Of a stretch of DNA of 64,000 nt, positions 4,819 through 63,453 are shown piece after piece. Numbering within the stretch: the stretch's first letter is position 1; the number at the start of each line of letters is the position of its first letter. The position numbers and the translations under genes were made by a program. Source of the DNA: Candidatus Sungiibacteriota bacterium (GTDB taxonomy: Bacteria; Patescibacteriota; Minisyncoccia; Sungbacterales; HO2-52-23). Where the stretch lies: assembly GCA_016180435.1 (NCBI GenBank), contig JACPBG010000003.1, forward strand, positions 13,791 through 77,790. The letters run 5' to 3'. A model generated the notes under the pieces. That model saw only the letters and a program-made list of their open reading frames with translations, did no database searches and was not told the origin of the DNA.

Positions 4819-4868
4819 TTTCTTATCTTCTCTAATTCGCGTGAATTAGAGAATAGCAGAATACGTAT

Positions 4869-5357
4869 ATGTTTATATATAGTACGCAAGGAATAATTCT
4901 TTCTCGTTCGACCGCCGGAGAGGCGGATGCGATTTTTTCAATCTATACTAAGGACTTTGGAAAAATTTTGGCACGCGCGCAAGGAATTAAAAAAGAAGAA
5001 GCAAAATTAAAAGGTCATCTGGAGACATTGCATTTAAGTTCAACCCAGTTTGTTTTGGGGAAAAATGGCGCACGGCTCATCGGCGCCTCATTATTGAATT
5101 CGTGGCCCATAATTCGATCCGATTTTGATAAGTCCATGGCCGCTCTGCGTATTACAGAAACGTTTGATCGCCACTGTTTTCCGAATGACCGTGACGAATC
5201 GTTATGGAACGTATTGCTTGAAAGTTTGACCCTGCTTGAGCGCAGCGAATTTTTTGCTGGTGATTTCCAAAAATTTCTACGTTCTTTCGAGGAAAAGTTT
5301 TCGGTCACGCTCGGTTATGGGGATACAAAAAGTGCGGTAAGTTATGGTATACTATAA
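4869..5357 (+). CDS. recO: DNA repair protein RecO (short form)
   Basis: N-terminus QGIILSRSTAGEADAIFSIYTKDFGKILARAQGIKK matches the RecO OB-fold N-terminus (GIVL...GEaD.il.lfT...Gki...AkGarr). Confidence 0.6.
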   Translation: MFIYSTQGIILSRSTAGEADAIFSIYTKDFGKILARAQGIKKEEAKLKGHLETLHLSSTQFVLGKNGARLIGASLLNSWPIIRSDFDKSMAALRITETFDRHCFPNDRDESLWNVLLESLTLLERSEFFAGDFQKFLRSFEEKFSVTLGYGDTKSAVSYGIL

Positions 5358-7664: not shown

Positions 7665-9338
7665 ATGAATGACAAAGAGCAAAATCTAATGGAAAAAATT
7701 GTATCGCTTGCCAAAAGACGGGGGTTTGTGTTTCCGGGTTCGGAAATTTACGGAGGACTTGCCGGAACTTGGGACTATGGGCCTTTGGGCGTGCGTTTGA
7801 AAGAAAATATCAAGCATGAGTGGTGGCGGCACATGCTTCGTGAAGACCGCATTTATCCCTTGGATGCCGCGATTTTGATGAATTCGAAAACTTGGGAGGC
7901 ATCCGGGCACATTGAGCATTTTTCCGACCCCCTAGTTGAGTGTAATAATTGTAATTATAGAGATAGACCAGATCAGTTGGTTGAGAATGAACTTGATTTA
8001 GCAACAGTTAGAAAGGAATTTCTTGTTATTATAGATGATATTGCGGACAAAATAGATTCGGATACGAATAAAGCAAAAGATCTAATGAAATCTGCAAGAA
8101 TTATAATTCAGGACCGCCTAAAAGACAACTCGCTGTCTCCCGAGGAAATATCTGCACTTCAGTCAACAGTTGAAATGATACTTAATCAATCTGAGTATCT
8201 ATTGAAAAAAAGTGGATCTAGTTTGCAAGTTAAAAGCTTTATTATTAAGGAAGTTTCAAATTCTTTAAAATACCATGGAATAGTTTTGCGTAGATATCTT
8301 AATGCTTTTGTGAGGTGTCCAAATTGTGGAGCAAGAAAATGGGGTATACCAAAGCTATTTCAAATGATGTTCAAAACTCATGCCGGACCAGTTGAAAATG
8401 CGTCCACAGTTGTTTATTTGCGTCCGGAAACCGCGCAGGGAATATTCACAAATTTTAAAAATGTGGTGGATTCGTTTCGTCCGGTTTTGCCGTTTGGCAT
8501 TGCGCAAATTGGGAAGGCGTTCAGAAATGAAATCACTCCGCGTAATTTCCTGTTCCGCGCGCGGGAATTTGAACAAATGGAACTTGAATATTTTTGCCAT
8601 CCGGAAAAAGCGGATGAATACTTCACCGATATACGCAATATGCGGATGGAGTGGTTTTTGTCGCTCGGAATCCGGAAAGACAACATACGATTTCGTGATC
8701 ACGCGAAAGACGAACTCGCGCATTATTCCCGTGCTGCCACAGATATTGAATATCGGTTCGGCTTGAATGAGGGCGGATTTTCCGAATTGGAAGGGATTGC
8801 CAATCGCGGAGATTTTGACCTTTCCAACCACGCCAAGCATTCCGGCATTGATTTGAAACTGGAAGGCATAATGCCCCACGTCATCGAGCCGTCGCTTGGG
8901 CTTGACCGTGCGTTTTTGGCGTTTTTGATGGATGCATATTATGAGGAATCCGTTGGAAGTCCGACTTCCAGCGGGAAGTCGGACTTCCCCGGAAAGCGCG
9001 TGGTATTGAAACTTCATCCTCGCCTTGCTCCGCTGAAAGTCGCCGTATTCCCGCTTCTGGCGAACAAACCGCAATTAGTTGAAAAAGCTAGGAGTATTTA
9101 TGTGATGTTGCGGGAGGCCGGAAGCTGGGGGTTGGGGGCCGCGATAGCTTGGGATGATCGTGGAAACATCGGCAAGCGTTATTTCGCGCAGGATGAAATC
9201 GGCACGCCTTGGTGTGTTACCGTAGATTTTCAGACATTGGAAGATGATACCGTGACGGTGCGGGATAGAGATACGGCCAAGCAGGAAAGAATTTCAATCA
9301 GTGAATTGCAAAAATATTTCAGAGAAAAGTTAATTTAA
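7665..9338 (+). CDS. glyQS: Glycyl-tRNA synthetase (alpha2 dimer type)
   Basis: N-terminus MEKIVSLAKRRGFVFPGSEIYGGLAGTWDYGPLG, class II motifs, and the CNNC...CPNCG zinc motif flanking an insertion. Contains an in-frame 34-bp perfect palindrome. Confidence 0.9.
   Translation: MNDKEQNLMEKIVSLAKRRGFVFPGSEIYGGLAGTWDYGPLGVRLKENIKHEWWRHMLREDRIYPLDAAILMNSKTWEASGHIEHFSDPLVECNNCNYRDRPDQLVENELDLATVRKEFLVIIDDIADKIDSDTNKAKDLMKSARIIIQDRLKDNSLSPEEISALQSTVEMILNQSEYLLKKSGSSLQVKSFIIKEVSNSLKYHGIVLRRYLNAFVRCPNCGARKWGIPKLFQMMFKTHAGPVENASTVVYLRPETAQGIFTNFKNVVDSFRPVLPFGIAQIGKAFRNEITPRNFLFRAREFEQMELEYFCHPEKADEYFTDIRNMRMEWFLSLGIRKDNIRFRDHAKDELAHYSRAATDIEYRFGLNEGGFSELEGIANRGDFDLSNHAKHSGIDLKLEGIMPHVIEPSLGLDRAFLAFLMDAYYEESVGSPTSSGKSDFPGKRVVLKLHPRLAPLKVAVFPLLANKPQLVEKARSIYVMLREAGSWGLGAAIAWDDRGNIGKRYFAQDEIGTPWCVTVDFQTLEDDTVTVRDRDTAKQERISISELQKYFREKLI
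8955..8988. repeat. Perfect 15-bp inverted repeat (ggaagtccgacttcc agcg ggaagtcggacttcc) lying in-frame inside glyQS (encodes GSPTSSGKSDFPG)
   Basis: Read directly; each arm is the reverse complement of the other. Confidence 0.85.
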
Positions 9339-15577: not shown

Positions 15578-16459
15578 ATGTCAACTCTAAAGTTATTTGA
15601 TGTCCATACTCATACTCAATTTGCCGCATTTAAGGATGAAATCGATGTGGTGATTAAACGCGCGCTGGACGCCGGGATCTGGTTGGTAAATGTGGGAACC
15701 CAGCGCGATACTTCGGCCAAGGCAGTTGAAATAGCGAATAAATATTCGGAGGGAGTATATGCAACAGTCGGGCTTCATCCTATTCATACGGAAAAGTCAT
15801 TCCACGACGAAAAAGAATTGGGTGCGTTAGTGTTCTCTAATTCGCGCGAATTAGAGAATAAGAACTTGCCTGGATTTTTAAGTCGAGCAGAAGAATTTGA
15901 TTATGAGTATTACAAAAAATTAGCCGAAGATCCGAAAGTTGTTGCGATCGGGGAGTGCGGGCTGGACTATTATAGAACTAAGAATTTAGAACTTAGAACT
16001 AAGCAGTTTGATACTTTTAAAAAACAGATTGAGTTGGCGGTTGAATTAAAAAAACCATTGATGATTCATTGCCGTAACGCCTTTGAAGATTTGATCGACA
16101 TTCTACAAACTACAAACTATAAACTAAAATCCGGTATAATACATTTTTTCTCCGGTACCGTAGAAGATGCGCGAAAACTTTTGGATCTCGGATTTTCATT
16201 TTCTTTCGGTGGTGTTATAACGTTTACCCGAGATTACGATGAAGTCGTGAAATATATGCCACTGGAGCGAATCTTGCTGGAGACCGATGCGCCATATGTG
16301 GCACCGGTTCCATATCGCGGGAAACGCAATGAACCATTGTATGTTGTGGAAGTAGCAAAAAAAATAGCGGAGCTTAAAGCCGTTGCGCCAGGCGATATAG
16401 AAAGAATTACAACCGAAAACGCCTTGAAAATATTCGGAATAAAAAATGACCGCGATTAG
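15578..16459 (+). CDS. tatD: TatD-family metal-dependent deoxyribonuclease/hydrolase
   Basis: LFDVHTHTQF (HxH), a conserved E, and an HF.S..GG motif. Contains in-frame GAACTTAGAA and CTACAAACTA repeat insertions (15974-16003, 16108-16135). Confidence 0.8.
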   Translation: MSTLKLFDVHTHTQFAAFKDEIDVVIKRALDAGIWLVNVGTQRDTSAKAVEIANKYSEGVYATVGLHPIHTEKSFHDEKELGALVFSNSRELENKNLPGFLSRAEEFDYEYYKKLAEDPKVVAIGECGLDYYRTKNLELRTKQFDTFKKQIELAVELKKPLMIHCRNAFEDLIDILQTTNYKLKSGIIHFFSGTVEDARKLLDLGFSFSFGGVITFTRDYDEVVKYMPLERILLETDAPYVAPVPYRGKRNEPLYVVEVAKKIAELKAVAPGDIERITTENALKIFGIKNDRD

Positions 16460-17497: not shown

Positions 17498-20400
17498 ATG
17501 CGCTATTTTCCCCACAAAATAGAAAAAAAGTGGCAAAAAATTTGGCTGAAAATGGAAATCTATGAACCCGACATCAAGAAAACCAAAAAGCCGTTTTATA
17601 ATTTAATGATGTTTCCGTATCCTTCCGCCGAAGGACTGCATGTTGGGAATATGTACGCGTTTACCGGCGCGGATATTTATGGTCGTTTTATGCGGATGCG
17701 GGGGCGTGATGTTTTTGAGCCGATCGGCCTTGATGGTTTCGGGATCCATTCGGAAAATTTTGCCATGAAAATTGGGAGGCACCCGGCGGATCAGGCCAAA
17801 ATTTCGGAGAAAAATTTTTACCGTCAGCTTGAGGCGCTTGGAAACGGGTTTGCTTGGTGTGAACGGCTTGAAACATATAACCCCGAATATTATAAATGGA
17901 CCCAATGGATTTTTGTGCAAATGTTTAAACGCGGCCTTGCCTATCGCAAAAAGCAGGCAGTGAATTGGTGTCCCAACTGCAAAACAGTGCTTGCGGATGA
18001 GCAGGTCATACAGAAATCCGAAATCCGAAATCCGAAATCCGAAACAAATTCGAAATTCGAAATTCCCGCCGGAGGCGAGGCTCGCTCGGGGCGGCAAAAT
18101 TCAAAACAAAAAATCACGATTGGCGTATGCGAACGATGCGATACGCCGGTGATTAAAAAAGAACTGGAGCAATGGTTTTTCAAAATAACGGATTATGCCG
18201 AGCGGCTTCTCGGAAATCTTGCAAAACTTGATTGGTCGGAGCGCGTCAAAATCGCGCAAAAAAACTGGATCGGGAAATCCGAGGGCGCTTTAATCAAATT
18301 TCCAATTTCCAATTTCCAATTTCCAATTAAGGATCTTGATTTTGTATTTATCCATGGATATAAAGGCGATTCACGGGATATTTTTTGGCCATGGTTTAGA
18401 AAAGAAATCGAACGTAGAGGCGCTAAGGTCTTTGCCCCCGACTTGCCCAATTCAGATGCGCCTAATATAAATGAACAGGTTCAATATGTTTTAAAGCAAC
18501 ATTCATTTAGCGAAAAGACCGTTATTGTGACTCACTCTTTGGGGGGCGTGGTTGCTATGAAATTATTGCCTTTATTGCACGATAAAATAGAACGGCTTTT
18601 GCTGGTGGCACCGCCTCTTCGGACGGAATTTCTGGATGGAAAAAAACGCCCGGCTTTAGAGGACGCTTGTGATTGGAAATTCAATTTTAATGAAATTAAA
18701 AAACACGCGAGGAATATTAGTGTTTTAGCAGATACGGAAGATCATGTTGTGTCCTTGGATCAACTCGTAGAAATTGCCGGACAGCTTAATGCCAGATTAC
18801 GGAAAACTGTGGCGAGTGCCCCGCATTTTAGAGAAATTGTAGAGCCGGAAATCGTAAACGAATTGTTTCCGGAAATTGAGATTTTTACCACGCGGCCGGA
18901 CACGCTTTTTGGAGCAACGTACCTCGTACTCTCGCCAGAGTACGAGGAAATTTCCAATTTCCAATTTCCAATTTCCAATCGCGGGGAAGTTGACGAATAT
19001 ATTAAAAATACGAAAGCTAAAACCGAGGAGGAAAGAATTTCCGAAGGCAGAGAAAAAACCGGAGTTGAATTAAAAGGAATAAAAGTTATAAATCCGGTAA
19101 ACGGCGAGGAAATCCCGGTGTGGGTTGCGGATTATGTTTTGGGCGGAGTGGGGATGGGCGCTATTATGGCGGTTCCGGCGCATGATGAGCGCGATTTTGA
19201 GTTCGCGAAAAAACACGATTTGCCGATTAAGACAGTCGTCGAATCATTCTACATTCAAAAAGAGGAACCGGGCGTATATAGAGAAAATGAATCAATCGTA
19301 CCGCGGGACGGGATAATTACAATTATCAAGCATTGGTCTGAAGATAAATATATTGGTCTTAAATGGAAAAAGGTTGCCTGGGGAACATTTCTTACGGGTG
19401 GCATAGAGAAAGGGCAAACCGCGGAACAGGCCGGAGTTGCTGAAATTTTGGAAGAAACAGGATATCTTCACCCCAAGTTTATTCGAGAACTTGGCATAAC
19501 GCACGGGCTTTTTTATCACGTTCCCAAAAAAGAGAATCGTCTTGTGCATGCACATATTCTCTATTTTGAATTGCAGGATGGGGCCCGGACCGAGATATCC
19601 GAAAAAGAGCAAGAGATTCATGATATAAAATGGTTGACTCTAAAAGAGCTTAAATCTTTCCTTACCCCCGCTACTCATACTTATGCCCTTGATTTATTTA
19701 GGGAGGGAATAAAAGTATATACGGGCGGGGGAATTCTTTGTAATTCCGGAGAATTCAACGGTATGGATTCAGAAAAGGCCAAATTGGAAATTACGAAATT
19801 CGTCTGCGGAGAGCGTAAAATTCAGTATCGCTTGCGGGATTGGTTGATTTCGCGACAAAGGTATTGGGGACCTCCAATTCCAATGATTTTTTGCGAGAGC
19901 TGCAAAAAATCACTGGAAAATTCCAAATTCTCGAAAGGAGAATTAGAAAATCCCGGATGGACAGCGGTGCCGGAAAAGGATTTGCCGGTAAAATTGCCGT
20001 ATGTGAAAAATTTCCGGCCGACCGGTACGGACAAATCACCCCTTGCCACTGTTAAAAAATTTTACAAAGTTCGCTGTCCCAAATGTAAATCTTGGGCTCG
20101 TAGGGAAACCGATGTTTCGGACACTTTCCTGGATTCGGCATGGTATTATTTACGCTATCCGAGCGTAAAAATGCAAAATTCAAAAATCAAAATGCAAAAT
20201 GAAAATTCAAAATCTAAAAATATAGAAATTCCTTGGAATTCGGAAATTACTAAAAAATGGACACCGGTGAACATGTACATAGGCGGAGCAGAACATTCTG
20301 TGCTTCATCTTCTTTACTCTCGTTTTTTAGCAATGGCGTTTAAGGATTGGGGATTGACGCATTTTGAAGAACCATTCACAAAATTTCGCGCGCATGGGCT

Positions 20401-21121
20401 TTTGATAAAAGACGGAACGAAGATGTCAAAGTCCAGGGGGAATGTGGTCAATCCGGATGAGTATATTAGAGCGTATGGCGCGGATGCTCTGCGTATGTAT
20501 TTGATGTTTTTGGGGCCGTTTGAGCAGGGCGGGGATTTTCGGGATGACGGGATCAGGGGAATAACACGGTTTTTGGAGAGAGCATACAAACTAATTTCCA
20601 ATTTCCAAAATCCAATTTCCAAACAAATTCCAAATTCAAAATCACAAATTCAAAAAATATTACACCAGACAATTAAGAAAGTAACGGAAGATATTGAGAA
20701 CCTGCAATACAATACGGCGATTTCGGCTTTAATGATACTTTTGAATAAGTTTGAAGAAAATCCGTCCGCAGTTACTAAAGAACACGTTTCAATATTTTTG
20801 CGATTGTTGGCTCCGGTTGCGCCCTTCATAACGGAGGAATTGTGGAGTATGTTTCCTACAAACTACAAACTACAAGCTACAAGCGTACATAAAAATAAGT
20901 GGCCGGAATATGACCCGAAATTGATTCAAGAAGACACGTTTGAGCTGGTGGTCCAGATAAACGGCAAAGTGCGGGACAAATTTGAGGCTCCGATTGATGT
21001 CTCTGAAGATAATGCAACCCGTTTGACTTTGGGGCGGGAGAGGGTTAAGAGTATAGTTGGAACCTTAAAACCGCGTAGGATTATTTTTGTCCCGAAGCGG
21101 TTGATAAATATCGTGATTTAG
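17498..21121 (+). CDS. leuS: Leucyl-tRNA synthetase carrying two extra inserted domains in one continuous ORF: an alpha/beta serine hydrolase (about 18329-18830) and a Nudix-like domain (about 19290-19720)
   Basis: LeuRS motifs: PYPSAEGLHVGN (HIGH-type), TTRPDTLFGATYLV, AVPAHDERDFEFA (editing Asp), NSGEFNGMD, YRLRDWLISRQRYWGPPIP and KMSKSRGNVVNP. The insert FIHGYKGD...THSLGG (GxSxG) resembles a YdeN/RBBP9-type hydrolase. The insert GGIEKGQTAEQAGVAEILEETGY is a Nudix-box-like sequence in which E is replaced by Q and R by A. At least six in-frame repeat insertions are present. Confidence 0.9.
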   Translation: MRYFPHKIEKKWQKIWLKMEIYEPDIKKTKKPFYNLMMFPYPSAEGLHVGNMYAFTGADIYGRFMRMRGRDVFEPIGLDGFGIHSENFAMKIGRHPADQAKISEKNFYRQLEALGNGFAWCERLETYNPEYYKWTQWIFVQMFKRGLAYRKKQAVNWCPNCKTVLADEQVIQKSEIRNPKSETNSKFEIPAGGEARSGRQNSKQKITIGVCERCDTPVIKKELEQWFFKITDYAERLLGNLAKLDWSERVKIAQKNWIGKSEGALIKFPISNFQFPIKDLDFVFIHGYKGDSRDIFWPWFRKEIERRGAKVFAPDLPNSDAPNINEQVQYVLKQHSFSEKTVIVTHSLGGVVAMKLLPLLHDKIERLLLVAPPLRTEFLDGKKRPALEDACDWKFNFNEIKKHARNISVLADTEDHVVSLDQLVEIAGQLNARLRKTVASAPHFREIVEPEIVNELFPEIEIFTTRPDTLFGATYLVLSPEYEEISNFQFPISNRGEVDEYIKNTKAKTEEERISEGREKTGVELKGIKVINPVNGEEIPVWVADYVLGGVGMGAIMAVPAHDERDFEFAKKHDLPIKTVVESFYIQKEEPGVYRENESIVPRDGIITIIKHWSEDKYIGLKWKKVAWGTFLTGGIEKGQTAEQAGVAEILEETGYLHPKFIRELGITHGLFYHVPKKENRLVHAHILYFELQDGARTEISEKEQEIHDIKWLTLKELKSFLTPATHTYALDLFREGIKVYTGGGILCNSGEFNGMDSEKAKLEITKFVCGERKIQYRLRDWLISRQRYWGPPIPMIFCESCKKSLENSKFSKGELENPGWTAVPEKDLPVKLPYVKNFRPTGTDKSPLATVKKFYKVRCPKCKSWARRETDVSDTFLDSAWYYLRYPSVKMQNSKIKMQNENSKSKNIEIPWNSEITKKWTPVNMYIGGAEHSVLHLLYSRFLAMAFKDWGLTHFEEPFTKFRAHGLLIKDGTKMSKSRGNVVNPDEYIRAYGADALRMYLMFLGPFEQGGDFRDDGIRGITRFLERAYKLISNFQNPISKQIPNSKSQIQKILHQTIKKVTEDIENLQYNTAISALMILLNKFEENPSAVTKEHVSIFLRLLAPVAPFITEELWSMFPTNYKLQATSVHKNKWPEYDPKLIQEDTFELVVQINGKVRDKFEAPIDVSEDNATRLTLGRERVKSIVGTLKPRRIIFVPKRLINIVI
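18013..18064. repeat. In-frame GAAATCC/GAAATTC heptad repeat in leuS (IQKSEIRNPKSETNSKFEIP)
   Basis: gaaatccgaaatccgaaatccgaaatccgaaacaaattcgaaattcgaaattcc. Confidence 0.8.
18065..18098. repeat. GGCGAGGCTCGC palindromic element copy in leuS (cccgccggaggcgaggctcgctcggggcggcaaaa; AGGEARSGRQ)
   Basis: About 90% identical to the metG copy at 14598-14633. Confidence 0.85.
18297..18328. repeat. In-frame ATTTCCA repeat x4 in leuS (FPISNFQFPIKD)
   Basis: aatttccaatttccaatttccaatttccaatt. Confidence 0.8.
18949..18980. repeat. In-frame ATTTCCA repeat x4 in leuS (ISNFQFPISN), preceded by an 11-bp inverted repeat cctcgtactct/agagtacgagg (18922-18948)
   Basis: atttccaatttccaatttccaatttccaatcg. Confidence 0.8.
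20168..20222. repeat. In-frame AAAATGCAAAAT/TTCAAAA repeat in leuS (KMQNSKIKMQNENSKSKN)
   Basis: aaaatgcaaaattcaaaaatcaaaatgcaaaatgaaaattcaaaatctaaaaa. Confidence 0.75.
20594..20655. repeat. In-frame TTTCCAA/ATTCAAA repeat in leuS (ISNFQNPISKQIPNSKSQIQKI)
   Basis: atttccaatttccaaaatccaatttccaaacaaattccaaattcaaaatcacaaattcaaaaa. Confidence 0.8.
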
Positions 21122-21595: not shown

Positions 21596-21700
21596 ACCCC
21601 GTTAAAGAAAAACCAACCGGACATTTTTTAATTTAGAGTTAACAAAAAATACTAAACATTCTTGCAGTAAAAACGTTTTCTGTTTTTCTCTAACGGGGTG
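21596..21700. repeat. CCCCGTTA(A/G)AG-TIR MITE-like element (aaccccgttaaag ... ctctaacggggtg)
   Basis: Same TIR family as 37109-37313 and the in-frame copy in mfd at 61976-62078. Confidence 0.6.
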
Positions 21701-32535: not shown

Positions 32536-32582
32536 CGTAGCTTCGAGGCTAAACCTCGATAGTTAACTATCGAGGTTTAGCC
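32536..32582. repeat. Near-perfect 20-bp-arm palindrome tcgaggctaaacctcgatag TTAA ctatcgaggtttagcctc upstream of tsaC
   Basis: Read directly. Same motif family as the in-frame palindrome at 62960-63010 in mfd. Confidence 0.8.
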
Positions 32583-32605
32583 TCTGTTGCATTTGTCTAT
32601 AGTTT

Positions 32606-33295
32606 ATGCGAATTATCAAACTTAACGAATCAAATCAAGCGATAGTTATAAAAAATGCCATAAAAATTATTCAAGGTGGCGGAATTGTGATTGGTCCCAC
32701 CGATACGGTTTACGGGATTTTTTGCGATGCGCGGAATAAAGATGCAATAAAGAAAATTTTTGCCTTAAAAGGGCGCCCCCGACAAAAAGCCCTCCCGATT
32801 TTTGTGCGCGATATAAAAATGGCGCGATATTATACGTATATTTCGGATGCCAAAGCGAGGTTTTTGGAGAAAGTGTGGCTTACCCCGTTAGATAATGAGC
32901 GAAGCGAAAATATAATGGGGCCCGGATTCGTAACCGTAGTTTTTCAACATAAGGATAAGTTGCCGAGGGTTTTAACCGGGGGCCTTGACACCGTCGGGAT
33001 TCGTATTCCGAATCATCCTTTTTTGCGCGAATTATTATTTATTTTGGACTATCCGGTTGCGCAGACCTCGGCCAATGTTTCTGATGCGCCTCCGGCCCGT
33101 AATGTCGCGGAAATTAAGAAGTATTTTATAGGCGCCAAAACCAAACCCGATTTAGTCATTGATGCCGGAGAGATTGAGGGGGAACCATCCGCGGTGATTG
33201 ATTGTACTGGAGTAAGGCCCGTTATTTTGCGAACCGGCACGCTTTCATTCGATACTCTGAATGATTTTTGGGACTCTCCGACGGATGGAAATTGA
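32606..33295 (+). CDS. tsaC: L-threonylcarbamoyladenylate synthase (YrdC/Sua5 family)
   Basis: YrdC-domain motifs GGIVIGPTDTVYGIFCDA, ALKGRP, LP.FV, and GIRIP.H. Confidence 0.8.
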   Translation: MRIIKLNESNQAIVIKNAIKIIQGGGIVIGPTDTVYGIFCDARNKDAIKKIFALKGRPRQKALPIFVRDIKMARYYTYISDAKARFLEKVWLTPLDNERSENIMGPGFVTVVFQHKDKLPRVLTGGLDTVGIRIPNHPFLRELLFILDYPVAQTSANVSDAPPARNVAEIKKYFIGAKTKPDLVIDAGEIEGEPSAVIDCTGVRPVILRTGTLSFDTLNDFWDSPTDGN

Positions 33296-37064: not shown

Positions 37065-37108
37065 AACCCCGTCAAGGGGTTATTTTATTTAAACGCGCGG
37101 ATGTTTTA

Positions 37109-37313
37109 CCCCGTTAGAACGCCGTCGACTCCTGTCGGCGGTAATGGCAGAGATAAATGATGGAAGTGTAATGCTCCCATCTACGGGTCGCTCGCCCCGT
37201 TAGAGATGCGGCGCGACAAGACCCCGGCGGTACTAGTGAAAAATGTAATTTTTTTCTTAAATGGATTCAACTCTATAAATCTCTAACGGGGCGAAGCGCC
37301 CGTTCTAACGGGG
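37109..37313. mobile_element. Nested CCCCGTTAGAG-TIR MITE-like element (outer TIR ccccgttagaacg / cgttctaacgggg; inner TIR ccccgttagagat / atctctaacgggg)
   Basis: Two concentric pairs of perfect 13-bp inverted repeats in the hyp-glyA intergenic region. Confidence 0.7.
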
Positions 37314-37351
37314 TTTTACAATAAACAATAGATGTTTTAGAATTTAAGAAT

Positions 37352-61227: not shown

Positions 61228-63453
61228 CTATTTTTTATAAGTTTCCACGGCCTCCGATAAAATTTGACAATACAGATTAAGCCCCACTTTGTTGATGGCG
61301 CCGGATTGTTCGCGGCCAAGCACATTTCCCGCCCCGCGGATTTCAAGATCGCGCAAGGCAATTTCATATCCTTGGCCGAGTTCCGAATATTCTTTCAGCG
61401 CCTCAAGGCGTTCGGCGGCTTTATCTGTTAAGTGTCGCGGTTTGTATAGAAAGTAGGCATGAGCCTTTTTGGATCCGCGGCCAATACGGCCTCTTAGCTG
61501 GTGGGCTTCGGCAAGTCCCAGGCGCGTGGCGTCATCTACAATAAGTGTGTTGGCGGACGAAATATCAAGTCCGTTTTCGATGATGGTGGTTGCCAGAAGA
61601 ATATTTATTTTTTTATCGCGGAATTGGTCCATGATATGAATTATTTCTTTTTCTTTCATGCGGCCGTGCATAATCCCTATTTTTTGGAAACTAAGTTTCC
61701 AAGCGCTTGGAAACTTAGTTTCCAAATAACGAAGAAGTTTTTCTTTCACCGCATCCATGGTTTCAATGCGGTTATGTAAAAAATATATTTGTCCGTGGCG
61801 GGAAAGTTCATGATCAATCGCGCGGACAATCGTTTGTGAAGAATAGGGCAGTACATAAGTCGCGATAGGGAGGCGTTCCGGAGGCGGGGAGTCAATGCGC
61901 GAAATATCACGGAGCTTGGCTAGCGCCAGCGACATGGTGCGCGGGATCGGTGTAGCGGATAAGGACAGGATGTCAACCCCGTTAGAGATATGGAACGAAT
62001 CGGCATTAGGGGGAGCGTGCTTGGGGACATAGCGATTTTCACTTAGTGTTTCGGTGTCGGATAAATCTCTAACGGGGTCAACTTCGGAACGCAAATCTTT
62101 AAAATATTCTTTTTGTTTGACCCCGAAGCGCTGTTCCTCGTCAATAATAACCAGCCCCAGGTTTTTAAACCGGATATCGCGCGAGAGTATACGGTGCGTT
62201 CCGATTACGCAATCAATGGATCCGTCCGCAAGGCCTCCGAGTATTTTTTTAGTTTCGCTTATGGATGTAAGGCGCGACAGCATGGATATGGTCACCGGCA
62301 GACGGCCGCCTATCCGCTCTTTAAACGTATTTAGGTGCTGTGCCGCAAGAATCGTGGTGGGAGCCAGAATGGCAACTTGTCGGCCTGAGCAAATTGCGCG
62401 TAAAGCCGCGCGTATGGCGATTTCGGTTTTTCCGAACCCCACGTCTCCGCAAAGAATCCGGTCCATGGGCCGCGGTCCGGAAAGATCGTGCATAATTTCA
62501 TTCTCGGCTTTTATCTGATCAGGCGTTTCCGTAAATGCAAAAGTATGGCGCAGTTCTTTCTCCAGTGTTTCGTCTCCGGGATGCGGCGGGCGCATGGCCG
62601 TGGCGCGCTTTTGATAAAGTTTTATGAGTTCCTGCGCCATTTTTTGCGTATCCTCGCGGATTTTGCGCGTGGTTTTTTGCCAGATCGATCCGCCCAAACG
62701 ATGAATTTTAGGAGTTTCAAATCCTATGTACGGGGACAGGCGGTTTTTTTGGTCAATGGGAACATATAGTCGATCCGGCGCTTTTCCTGACCCAGGTGCT
62801 GCGTATTCAATGAGAAAGAACTTAGAACTTGGAGTTGACAACTTGGAATTATCGCTAAGTTCTTGTTTGCTAAGATCTAAGTTCTCGGAATAGGAATTTT
62901 CAGAAACGATTCCTCTGAAAATTCCTATTCCGTGGTCCACATGCACCACATAATTTCCCGGAGCAAGTTTATCTATCGAGGCTAAGCCTCTATAGTGGTA
63001 TCGAGGCTTAGCCTCGATAGGAGGCGTTGGCCTTGGATAAATTGAGACAATCTGGTTTCCGGAAAACTCAATTAAATACGGTTTCTCGGTATTTATCGGC
63101 CAGATTTCTATAATTCCCCCGCGTACGGCAAAAATTCCTTTGCCGGACGTATGTGTGCTTCGTTCATATCCGAAATCGGCAAATTGTCGTAAAACCTCAT
63201 GTGGACGGATAACCAGATCCTTTTCAAGAAACAATGAATTGTCGCGCCACCATGGATTGGAAATACGTGCTTTTTTAATTGCGGCGGCGTTTTCCGAGAA
63301 CCAACCTCCTTCGCTCGCCGCGGCGAGCTTCGGTGGGCGCGACAAAACAGCCCGCTCCAGATTCTGGGGGGATATAGATACGATCAACAGTTCGCTTATT
63401 ACATCTGACATCTGACATCTGATATTTAACGCGGGATTAAAGTCAATCGTCAA
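61228..63453 (-). CDS. mfd: Transcription-repair coupling factor Mfd (short form lacking the UvrB-homology N-terminal domains), with multiple in-frame palindromic insertions
   Basis: RNAP-interaction domain (IEIWPIN...), helicase motifs GDVGFGKTE (Walker A), DEEQRFG (DExx), TRG motif region and C-terminal domain. In-frame inserts at 61976-62078, 62815-62850 and 62960-63010. The start may be the internal Met at 63411. Confidence 0.85.
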   Translation of the reverse strand: MTIDFNPALNIRCQMSDVISELLIVSISPQNLERAVLSRPPKLAAASEGGWFSENAAAIKKARISNPWWRDNSLFLEKDLVIRPHEVLRQFADFGYERSTHTSGKGIFAVRGGIIEIWPINTEKPYLIEFSGNQIVSIYPRPTPPIEAKPRYHYRGLASIDKLAPGNYVVHVDHGIGIFRGIVSENSYSENLDLSKQELSDNSKLSTPSSKFFLIEYAAPGSGKAPDRLYVPIDQKNRLSPYIGFETPKIHRLGGSIWQKTTRKIREDTQKMAQELIKLYQKRATAMRPPHPGDETLEKELRHTFAFTETPDQIKAENEIMHDLSGPRPMDRILCGDVGFGKTEIAIRAALRAICSGRQVAILAPTTILAAQHLNTFKERIGGRLPVTISMLSRLTSISETKKILGGLADGSIDCVIGTHRILSRDIRFKNLGLVIIDEEQRFGVKQKEYFKDLRSEVDPVRDLSDTETLSENRYVPKHAPPNADSFHISNGVDILSLSATPIPRTMSLALAKLRDISRIDSPPPERLPIATYVLPYSSQTIVRAIDHELSRHGQIYFLHNRIETMDAVKEKLLRYLETKFPSAWKLSFQKIGIMHGRMKEKEIIHIMDQFRDKKINILLATTIIENGLDISSANTLIVDDATRLGLAEAHQLRGRIGRGSKKAHAYFLYKPRHLTDKAAERLEALKEYSELGQGYEIALRDLEIRGAGNVLGREQSGAINKVGLNLYCQILSEAVETYKK
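61976..62078. mobile_element. CCCCGTTAGAGAT-TIR MITE-like element inserted in mfd without breaking the ORF
   Basis: accccgttagagat ... atctctaacggggt, perfect 14-bp TIRs about 75 bp apart; the mfd ORF reads through (…SDTETLSENRYVPKHAPPNADSFHISNGVDI…). Confidence 0.75.
62960..63010. repeat. CGAGGCTAAGCCTCGATAG palindrome pair in-frame in mfd (PIEAKPRYHYRGLASID)
   Basis: atctatcgaggctaagcctctatagtggtatcgaggcttagcctcgatagg, the same motif as the intergenic palindrome at 32536-32582. Confidence 0.8.

Follow-up and report, generated by a model that had tools for sequence, protein, structure and literature searches.

A probable in-frame miniature inverted-repeat transposable element in mfd of a Candidatus Sungiibacteriota bacterium, with relatives sharing its ends across bacterial phyla

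Can a mobile DNA element settle within the reading frame of a gene for a conserved motor protein and leave that frame open? The question is raised by mfd, the gene for the transcription-repair coupling factor, in a 64,000-nucleotide stretch of a Candidatus Sungiibacteriota genome (GenBank assembly GCA_016180435.1, contig JACPBG010000003.1, positions 13,791 to 77,790; hereafter the window). An initial annotation, made from the sequence alone, had placed inside this gene a short segment bounded by terminal inverted repeats (TIRs). We consider it likely that this segment is a transposable element of the miniature inverted-repeat kind (MITE) that was inserted in frame and is translated as a loop of 35 residues. 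The phenomenon itself is already known from intragenic MITEs such as the Rickettsia palindromic elements (RPEs), and a review describes MITE–gene fusions involving RPE, ERIC, Correia/NEMIS and Coxiella QMITE elements as "not unusual" (PMC10969869). The mfd copy would add to these a clean natural example of a selfish element that lends an extra loop to a conserved motor protein.

A 101-bp element flanked by a target-site duplication

The mfd open reading frame (ORF) spans positions 61228–63453 of the window on the minus strand and is located downstream of the gene for peptidyl-tRNA hydrolase. Its product is identical to a recorded protein of a Candidatus Sungbacteria metagenome-assembled genome, encoded on a contig of 146 kb. 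The gene, a short form of the type found in the Candidate Phyla Radiation (CPR), and the parts of the insert within it are as follows; both copies of the target-site duplication were read directly from the sequence.

61228..63414, minus strand: mfd, CPR-type transcription-repair coupling factor of 728 amino acids, host of the insertion
61973..61976: left TCAA of the target-site duplication (coding strand, TTGA)
61977..61989: left TIR, CCCCGTTAGAGAT, the first 10 bp of which are the core conserved throughout the family
61990..62064: interior of the element, 75 bp
62065..62077: right TIR, ATCTCTAACGGGG
62078..62081: right copy of the target-site duplication, TCAA

The element comprises 101 bp, from the CCCC that begins at 61977 to the GGGG that ends at 62077, with perfect inverted ends of 13 bp. 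A 4-bp direct repeat, TCAA, immediately abuts it on either side, and the coding strand across the site reads GTTGAC/CCCGTT...AACGGG/GTTGAC. The initial annotation had recognized the element correctly but assigned it 103 bp (61976–62078), because one base of the TCAA repeat (A...T) was included on each side. Element and duplication together amount to 105 bp, and the insert thus adds exactly 35 codons and keeps the frame open, in agreement with the earlier claim of an unbroken mfd ORF. The translation across the element is RSEVDPVRDLSDTETLSENRYVPKHAPPNADSFHISNGVDIL; in its protein context the read-through is RSEVD-PVRDLSDTETLSENRYVPKHAPPNADSFHISNG-VDIL, which contains no stop codon and includes the residues DLSDTETLSENR and YVPK...SFHISNGVDILSLSATPIPR. 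The uninterrupted, empty-site gene would read GAAGTTGACATCCTG, and a messenger relieved of the 105 nt would join ...GAAGTTGAC to ATCCTG....

Two other classes of insert were considered and set aside. An intein is incompatible with an insert of just 35 residues (PVRD...SNGVD), since inteins are at least approximately 130 residues long and have splicing blocks as well as nucleophile residues at each of their junctions. An integron attC site was rejected by our own reasoning, the order of GTTAGAG and CTCTAAC being the reverse of R''/R'.

The segment is absent from Mfd orthologues

The protein comprises UvrB_inter, CarD/TRCF RID, DEAD and Helicase_C domains, and every one of its helicase motifs is intact. 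The added residues (approximately 445–479, n = 35) belong to RecA-like translocase domain 1, where they separate motif II (DEEQ) from motif III (SAT), and are not at a D4/D5 boundary. The initial annotation had also called mfd essential, which does not hold: mfd is not essential in model bacteria.

Comparison with Mfd orthologues had been named beforehand as one check, a segment shared among them being the mark of ancestral sequence. In an alignment of 21 orthologues with 54–70% BLASTP identity to the query, 20 lack the segment: their ...LR.E runs directly into VDILSLSATPIPRT, with the general form (V/I)DILSLSATPIPRT. The 35 residues are likewise absent from all solved Mfd structures in the PDB. 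A HMMER match to the Mfd of M. smegmatis splits exactly at the insert, with query residues 197–446 aligned to 564–812 and 480–727 to 811–1049; the dipeptide VD is used twice in this match. The second VD is partly encoded by the duplicated target. These absences, together with the flanking 4-bp duplication, bear out the reading of an in-frame MITE that the initial annotation had put forward.

In an AlphaFold model computed from the orthologue alignment, residues 443–477 have a predicted local distance difference test (pLDDT) score below 50 and no secondary structure, and are flanked by a helix (432–443) and a strand (481–486); the insert is accordingly predicted to form a disordered surface loop. 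One orthologue from Sungbacteria (P0020; L001:2400–2500) has a different insert of approximately 27 residues, GAGLAENKPAQSPSDQPQTIETPHG, at the same point between motifs II and III. Remnants of inverted ends were not found in the DNA of this insert, and for that reason we treat it as independent; the presence of an unrelated insert at the same point means that the site evidently tolerates insertions. The site apparently can accommodate the 35 extra residues considered here.

Four copies in one window

The ends of the mfd element recur within the window. The 11-mer CCCCGTTAGAG, allowing at most one mismatch, has nine matches against 0.56 expected, a count reached in none of 100 shuffles. Eight of the nine form four inward-facing pairs (21597/21698, 37109/37313, 37195/37291, which is nested, and 61977/62077), and the single 64-kb window thus holds four copies. 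Besides the mfd copy, the matches are:

21597..21698: intergenic member, 102 bp, between leuS and glmS, with flanks CGAA/TGAA
37109..37313: outer family member upstream of glyA, approximately 108 bp without the inner copy
37195..37291: inner member of 97 bp, enclosed by the outer one, with flanks CTCG/CGAA that are not a direct repeat
32883..32893, plus strand: lone motif CCCCGTTAGAT in a Sua5/TsaC-like ORF, whose partner was not found nearby

The family of TIR-bounded elements proposed in the initial annotation is upheld by these counts and by the target duplications described below, and the composite upstream of glyA does consist of two concentric TIR pairs. The degenerate copy that had been placed at 21596–21700 is a copy indeed, with one mismatch in its left end (CCCCGTTAAAG), but its coordinates are 21597–21698. 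The search for target-site duplications that had been recommended succeeded at the mfd copy and failed at both the inner glyA-side copy and the copy at 21597. The lone motif at 32883 is probably a chance match or a relic and is not counted as an element; a single match of this kind does not exceed what chance allows. The copies in the window have interiors that resemble neither one another nor any other sequence in the window, and an origin of the interiors by copying of host DNA is, in this comparison within the window, unsupported.

A family with near-identical ends in many phyla

We defined the family by its 10-bp ends, CCCCGTTAGA...TCTAACGGGG, and scanned one genome per bacterial or archaeal species for CCCCGTTAGA, a gap of 66–96 bases and TCTAACGGGG. 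The scan returned at least 120 loci, and the family statistics that follow rest on the matches listed from it (136–138 copies in approximately 121 loci). By our own arithmetic, chance would produce approximately 17 matches of this pattern in 596 Gb; despite this expectation, most of the matches are clearly real. Judging from record titles, end pairs spaced approximately 100 bp apart occur in at least ten phyla. The hosts comprise many lineages of Patescibacteria, Omnitrophota, Desulfobacterota and other "delta" groups, Planctomycetota including Brocadia, Nitrospirota/Thermodesulfovibrionia, Stahlbacteria/WOR-3, Cloacimonadota, a spirochaete and a few others. The same pattern had no match among 2.9 million viral contigs (IMG/VR).

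The 10-bp core is common to all copies and is usually extended by 2–4 further complementary bases, which vary from copy to copy yet are complementary within a copy. Element lengths range from 60 to 136 bp (median 101). A perfect direct repeat of 4 bp abuts the ends in 71 of 136 copies (52%) and a longer repeat in none; the next four bases outward agree in only three copies. When the right flanks were shuffled among copies, the corresponding number averaged 11.1 and never exceeded 23 in 5000 trials. The duplicated sites have the target consensus R/T-W-W-A/Y, and the mfd target, GTTGAC, fits the form R/TNNA/Y. Several interior subfamilies are common to distant taxa, as illustrated by the outer glyA-side copy of the window, the interior of which is homologous to that of an element from Saccharibacteria (L017). 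Copies are often nested within one another. Four identical 94-bp copies on three contigs of the metagenome-assembled genome (MAG) DX4.bin27 (L005:1–94, L009:2166–2259 and 4941–5034, and L044:1389–1482), each with its own 4-bp duplication, are a sign of recent activity.

The family thus combines terminal inverted repeats, a target duplication of fixed length, small size without a transposase gene, and multiple copies with recent movement, the features by which MITEs are recognized. Judged by its sequence, the mfd segment is a genuine MITE of a family that has been widely moved or exchanged. That very distant phyla from shared groundwater and sediment habitats have the 10-bp end and the TNNA target in common points to a transposase in wide exchange, and the family could serve as a marker of horizontal transfer among Patescibacteria, Omnitrophota, Desulfobacterota and Planctomycetota. 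Literature searches with the 10-mer gave irrelevant matches, and a paper on MITEs in the CPR was not found; as far as the literature was searched, the family seems to be undescribed.

The family-wide features bear on two other origins of the mfd segment. One is a palindrome generated locally, by template switching or inverted duplication within mfd and not by transposition, for which a parallel exists in three other long palindromes in variable loops of the same gene. Yet the ends of the segment are the exact 10-mer of the family plus three matching bases, not neighbouring mfd sequence, complementarity is confined to these 13-bp ends, the 75-bp interior is not palindromic, and the flanking 4-bp repeat agrees with the target consensus of the family. 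We regard a local origin as extremely improbable.

The other is an element of the repetitive extragenic palindrome (REP)/REPIN or IS200/IS605 type, for which the mobile form would be single-stranded DNA and the enzyme a tyrosine (HUH) transposase, for instance a REP-associated tyrosine transposase (RAYT). Like REPINs, members of the present family are inverted-repeat units of approximately 100 bp that occur in many copies, mostly between genes, and are able to form a long hairpin. Many have two internal hairpins, one of these with a CATTAAA loop and complementary variation in its stem, the end bases 11–13 vary between copies but are complementary within each, and one subclass sits in hairpin loops. 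Such systems, however, make no target duplication, REPINs being lineage-specific besides, whereas the present family has its 4-bp duplication in just over half of the copies and near-identical ends across phyla. A GTAG-type REP head is absent, and neither RAYT nor TnpA recurs near the copies in the 121 loci, and we judge an origin of this type very unlikely.

The internal hairpin with a conserved CATTAAA-like loop is common to many copies from different phyla, in which a second hairpin is also present. Its stems differ in sequence yet remain complementary (GGTGG/CCACC, GGGAG/CTCCC, CGGGG/CCCCG). It occurs in L014, L017, L020, L032, L036, L060, L062, L071, L098, L101, L115 and L121, and in the window at 37109–37194; no matching Rfam family was found for these copies.

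With regard to genomic setting, the nested pair of the window is placed precisely between the upstream gene's terminator hairpin (37065–37081) and a promoter-like TTTACA-17-TAGAAT (37315–37343) that precedes glyA. In several other genomes an element adjoins TTGACA or TTTACA, which is consistent with the TNNA target.

Intragenic copies and the survival of the frame

Only three of the 137 copies listed lie in long ORFs. Apart from the mfd copy, these are a copy in a 2-oxoacid:ferredoxin oxidoreductase-like gene, between its thiamine pyrophosphate (TPP) and ferredoxin domains (L040:6059–6147), and a copy at the start of a Memo-like domain (L083:1732–1838). For each of the three, adding 4 to the element length gives a multiple of 3, and the reading frame is the same PVR...SNGV frame in each. 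Each end, read directly, has a stop in one of its three frames (CCC CGT TAG; TC TAA CGG) and leaves the other two open. Across the whole family, length plus 4 falls into the three residue classes modulo 3 in the proportion 53:42:43, with no bias towards multiples of 3; the in-frame copies are therefore survivors of selection. The simplest reading is that a copy landing in a gene is lost except where it happens to preserve the frame, to be free of stops and to fall in a tolerant loop.

In its mode of action, though not by homology, the mfd insert behaves as RPEs do. Both are short, palindromic, mobile DNA that stands in frame in conserved genes and is absent from orthologues, and both give an extra peptide, in mfd a predicted one, at a position that the fold can bear; in mfd the frame is kept and the insert is predicted to form a loop. 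The differences are considerable: there is no sequence relation, approximately 2% of the present copies are intragenic as against nearly half of the RPEs (three families), the interior is not conserved and encodes no family peptide beyond the PVR...SNGV ends, and the family spans many phyla where RPEs are known from one genus.

A proposed mechanism and the search for a parent transposase

We propose that a DDE-type transposase acting in trans would recognize the 10–13 bp ends and make a 4-bp staggered cut at G/TTGA/C in mfd, a TNNA target. The element would be joined at the cut, repair of the stagger would duplicate TTGA, and the insert, read as PVR...SNGV, would on translation give Mfd 35 additional residues as a surface loop between motifs II and III. 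The chemistry would thus be of the cut-and-paste kind, Mfd would still work, and the loop would have no function of its own.

Several observations weigh against this account. Neither an autonomous element nor a transposase with these ends was found in the 121 loci and the window, and no protein family recurs beside the copies in the 121 loci. Pairs of ends 0.6–3.5 kb apart do occur in the loci, none of which encloses an ORF; all combine neighbouring short elements. The T..A tetranucleotide target and ends beginning CC or CCC are reminiscent of piggyBac and its bacterial relative IS1380, and piggyBac uses TTAA with variants including TAAA and TCAA (PMC10813416). IS1380 was sampled through ISEcp1 and four other lineages, drawn from representative and profile searches and five contigs. 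Homologues of IS1380 were absent from all loci and from the window in tblastn searches with 40 IS1380 proteins. ISEcp1 starts with CCTAGATTC and the other sampled members with CCTAAA, and their target duplications, where the flanks are readable, are of 5 bp (TTAAA, TTATA). Parentage by IS1380/piggyBac was rejected on these grounds, the sampled elements (few lineages) having 5-bp duplications and no CCCCGTTAGA ends; the likeness appears to be one of style only, and descent is not supported by the sequences compared.

Further points against concern the mfd copy itself. Its interior has no relative in the window or among the 137 other copies collected, and neither its subfamily nor its age appears assignable from that interior. 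A search of JGI metagenomes with a degenerate 27-mer for empty-site or sister mfd alleles gave no match, and the structure model of this Mfd is no more than moderate in quality (mean pLDDT 65). That the insert is translated and that this Mfd is active are both points that we infer. Finally, one metagenome-assembled contig is the only source from which the gene is known, and its protein cluster has one member, as might be expected if the insert were an assembly artefact or mfd were already inactive, in which case its tolerance would say nothing about function. Such an explanation would have to accommodate an insert in frame, a perfect duplication, an open frame of 728 codons with all helicase motifs conserved, and two other in-frame copies in unrelated genes of other genomes; we find it scarcely credible.

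Copies in hairpin loops and tRNA genes

A subclass of the family has no direct repeat; its flanks are TTCA or TTTA at one end and CNNG at the opposite end. A metagenome scan for this flank form (TTCA/TTTA...CNNG) gave 128 copies. Copies with such non-duplicated flanks are located in hairpin loops, where TTCA or CTYG is found on one side and CNNG on the other. The loops include that of a CTYG tetraloop hairpin belonging to other family members and that of another conserved hairpin, GCNGCAAC-GATTCA(element)CRGG-GTTGNNGC. This suggests that hairpin loops may be targeted by the elements. The inner glyA-side copy of the window (37195–37291) belongs to the same subclass. The copies concerned, with those nested in tRNA genes, are:

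L133, L144, L178, L182, L185, L215: copies in the CTYG-loop hairpin
L137, L138, L145, L164, L166, L168: copies in the GCNGCAAC..GTTGNNGC hairpin
L065:1105–1290, L089:5020–5210, L067:1320–1530, L031:4940–5120, L041:420–590: tRNA-in-tRNA loci of the genome scan
L140, L148, L154, L158, L159, L172, L173, L187, L188, L198, L214, L233 and others: tRNA-in-tRNA loci of the metagenome scan

A complete tRNA gene is carried by 27 of the 128 metagenome copies, and for 23 of these 27 the site occupied is the anticodon loop of another tRNA gene with the same orientation; none of the tRNA-free copies among the 128 lies inside a tRNA gene. The genome scan shows the same arrangement in 5 of 138 copies. The position is the D-loop once and the anticodon loop otherwise, with flanks TTYA...CNNG. 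Cargo and host agree in identity: in nine of nine cases Val(GAC) cargo is found in host loops starting with TTGA, Val(TAC) cargo in those starting with TTTA and Val(CAC) cargo in those starting with TTCA, and the cargo of Pro, Met and Leu hosts is likewise Pro, Met and Leu. Hosts called Glu, Lys or Gly by ARAGORN have, in our own reading, a G3:U70 pair, as does their Ala(CGC) cargo. The host anticodon is destroyed, and in most cases a single excision fails to restore it. Stems of the host tRNAs are mostly paired, with compensatory differences between homologous loci, although some hosts are degenerate; standard tRNA finders miss them.

Our best guess is that each of these tRNA genes was disrupted by an element which itself supplies a functional copy of the same tRNA, the alternative being that the nested copies are intron-like. 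They resemble tRNA introns as inserts in an anticodon loop closed by a helix, but differ from them in being approximately 105 nt long without a group I core and in carrying a complete tRNA of the host's identity. Bulge-helix-bulge and single-excision models were rejected, as they leave the anticodon loops of Val, Met and Pro hosts unrestored. Introns in tRNA genes are known from Patescibacteria, and a 2026 paper on group I introns in their tRNA genes is silent on tRNA-carrying inserts (PMC13011429); as far as the literature was searched, such relatives seem to be undescribed. If confirmed, tRNA-carrying copies in tRNA genes of the same type would represent a new route of tRNA gene replacement, and they may cause errors in tRNA annotation.

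An RNA-level reading of the mfd copy

Because members of the family land in hairpin loops, and the tRNA-bearing ones in anticodon loops of tRNAs of the same identity, a reading at the RNA level has to be weighed. The 10-bp helix might also mark RNA-level processing, making the family a new small bacterial intron or processing cassette and the mfd copy one that is perhaps removed from the mRNA; we hold this to be unlikely. In a strictly intron-like version, which we think quite unlikely, the terminal helix would be a processing signal, 105 nt would be cut from the mfd transcript, and the protein would lack the loop.

There is evidence of this kind to consider. The ends of the mfd copy form an RNA helix of 13 bp (17 bp with the flanks), with a minimum free energy of −29.8 kcal/mol and z = −4.1, and the ancestral codons are exactly recovered when the element is deleted together with one of the two TCAA copies. 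The anticodon loop occupied by family members is the position of bacterial group I and archaeal introns, and the 10-bp ends are identical between the diverged homologous loci L065 and L089. Yet the favourable fold energy stems from the terminal stem alone, and 101 nt is too short for a group I or group II intron. A search of Rfam at gathering score found no match in the window or in 18 element-bearing loci. Most copies have target duplications at the DNA level, the Val, Met and Pro host tRNA loops are not restored by any single excision, and the junction forms, in our own reading, no canonical bulge-helix-bulge. Some host tRNAs look degenerate (L089, L174), and an open frame in the mfd copy would be unnecessary if it were spliced. 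The RNA-level function that the initial annotation had offered as an alternative thus gains no support from either the Rfam search or the fold of the mfd copy.

Other palindromes and the leuS gene

The mfd coding sequence contains three more long palindromes, with arms of 21–25 nt, all inside loops of variable length:

61680–61729: palindrome, LETKFPS/AWKLSFQ
62884–62934: palindrome, GIGIFRG..SENSYSE
62973–63020: palindrome, PIEAKPRY..YRGLASID

One arm of each encodes conserved residues, while the other, its reverse complement, encodes extra residues; from their sequence, these palindromes look like inverted duplications that created new coding sequence. In the window as a whole, hairpin palindromes whose arms reach 12 nt or more number 24, compared with approximately one in shuffled sequence, and several are inside ORFs. 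Examples are found at 4826–4855, 8955–8988, 15831–15860, 18920–18949, 19878–19918 and 32545–32584. The palindrome at 32545 (..CTATCGAGGTTTAGCCTC) is similar to the mfd palindrome at 62973, and TTCTCTAATTCGCG(C/T)GAATTAGAGAA is present twice in the window.

The leuS gene (17498–21121, plus strand), beside one of the intergenic copies, encodes a leucyl-tRNA synthetase of 1207 amino acids with an extra alpha/beta (serine) hydrolase domain at residues 283–437 and a NUDIX domain at residues 627–721, both of which come in addition to the editing domain.

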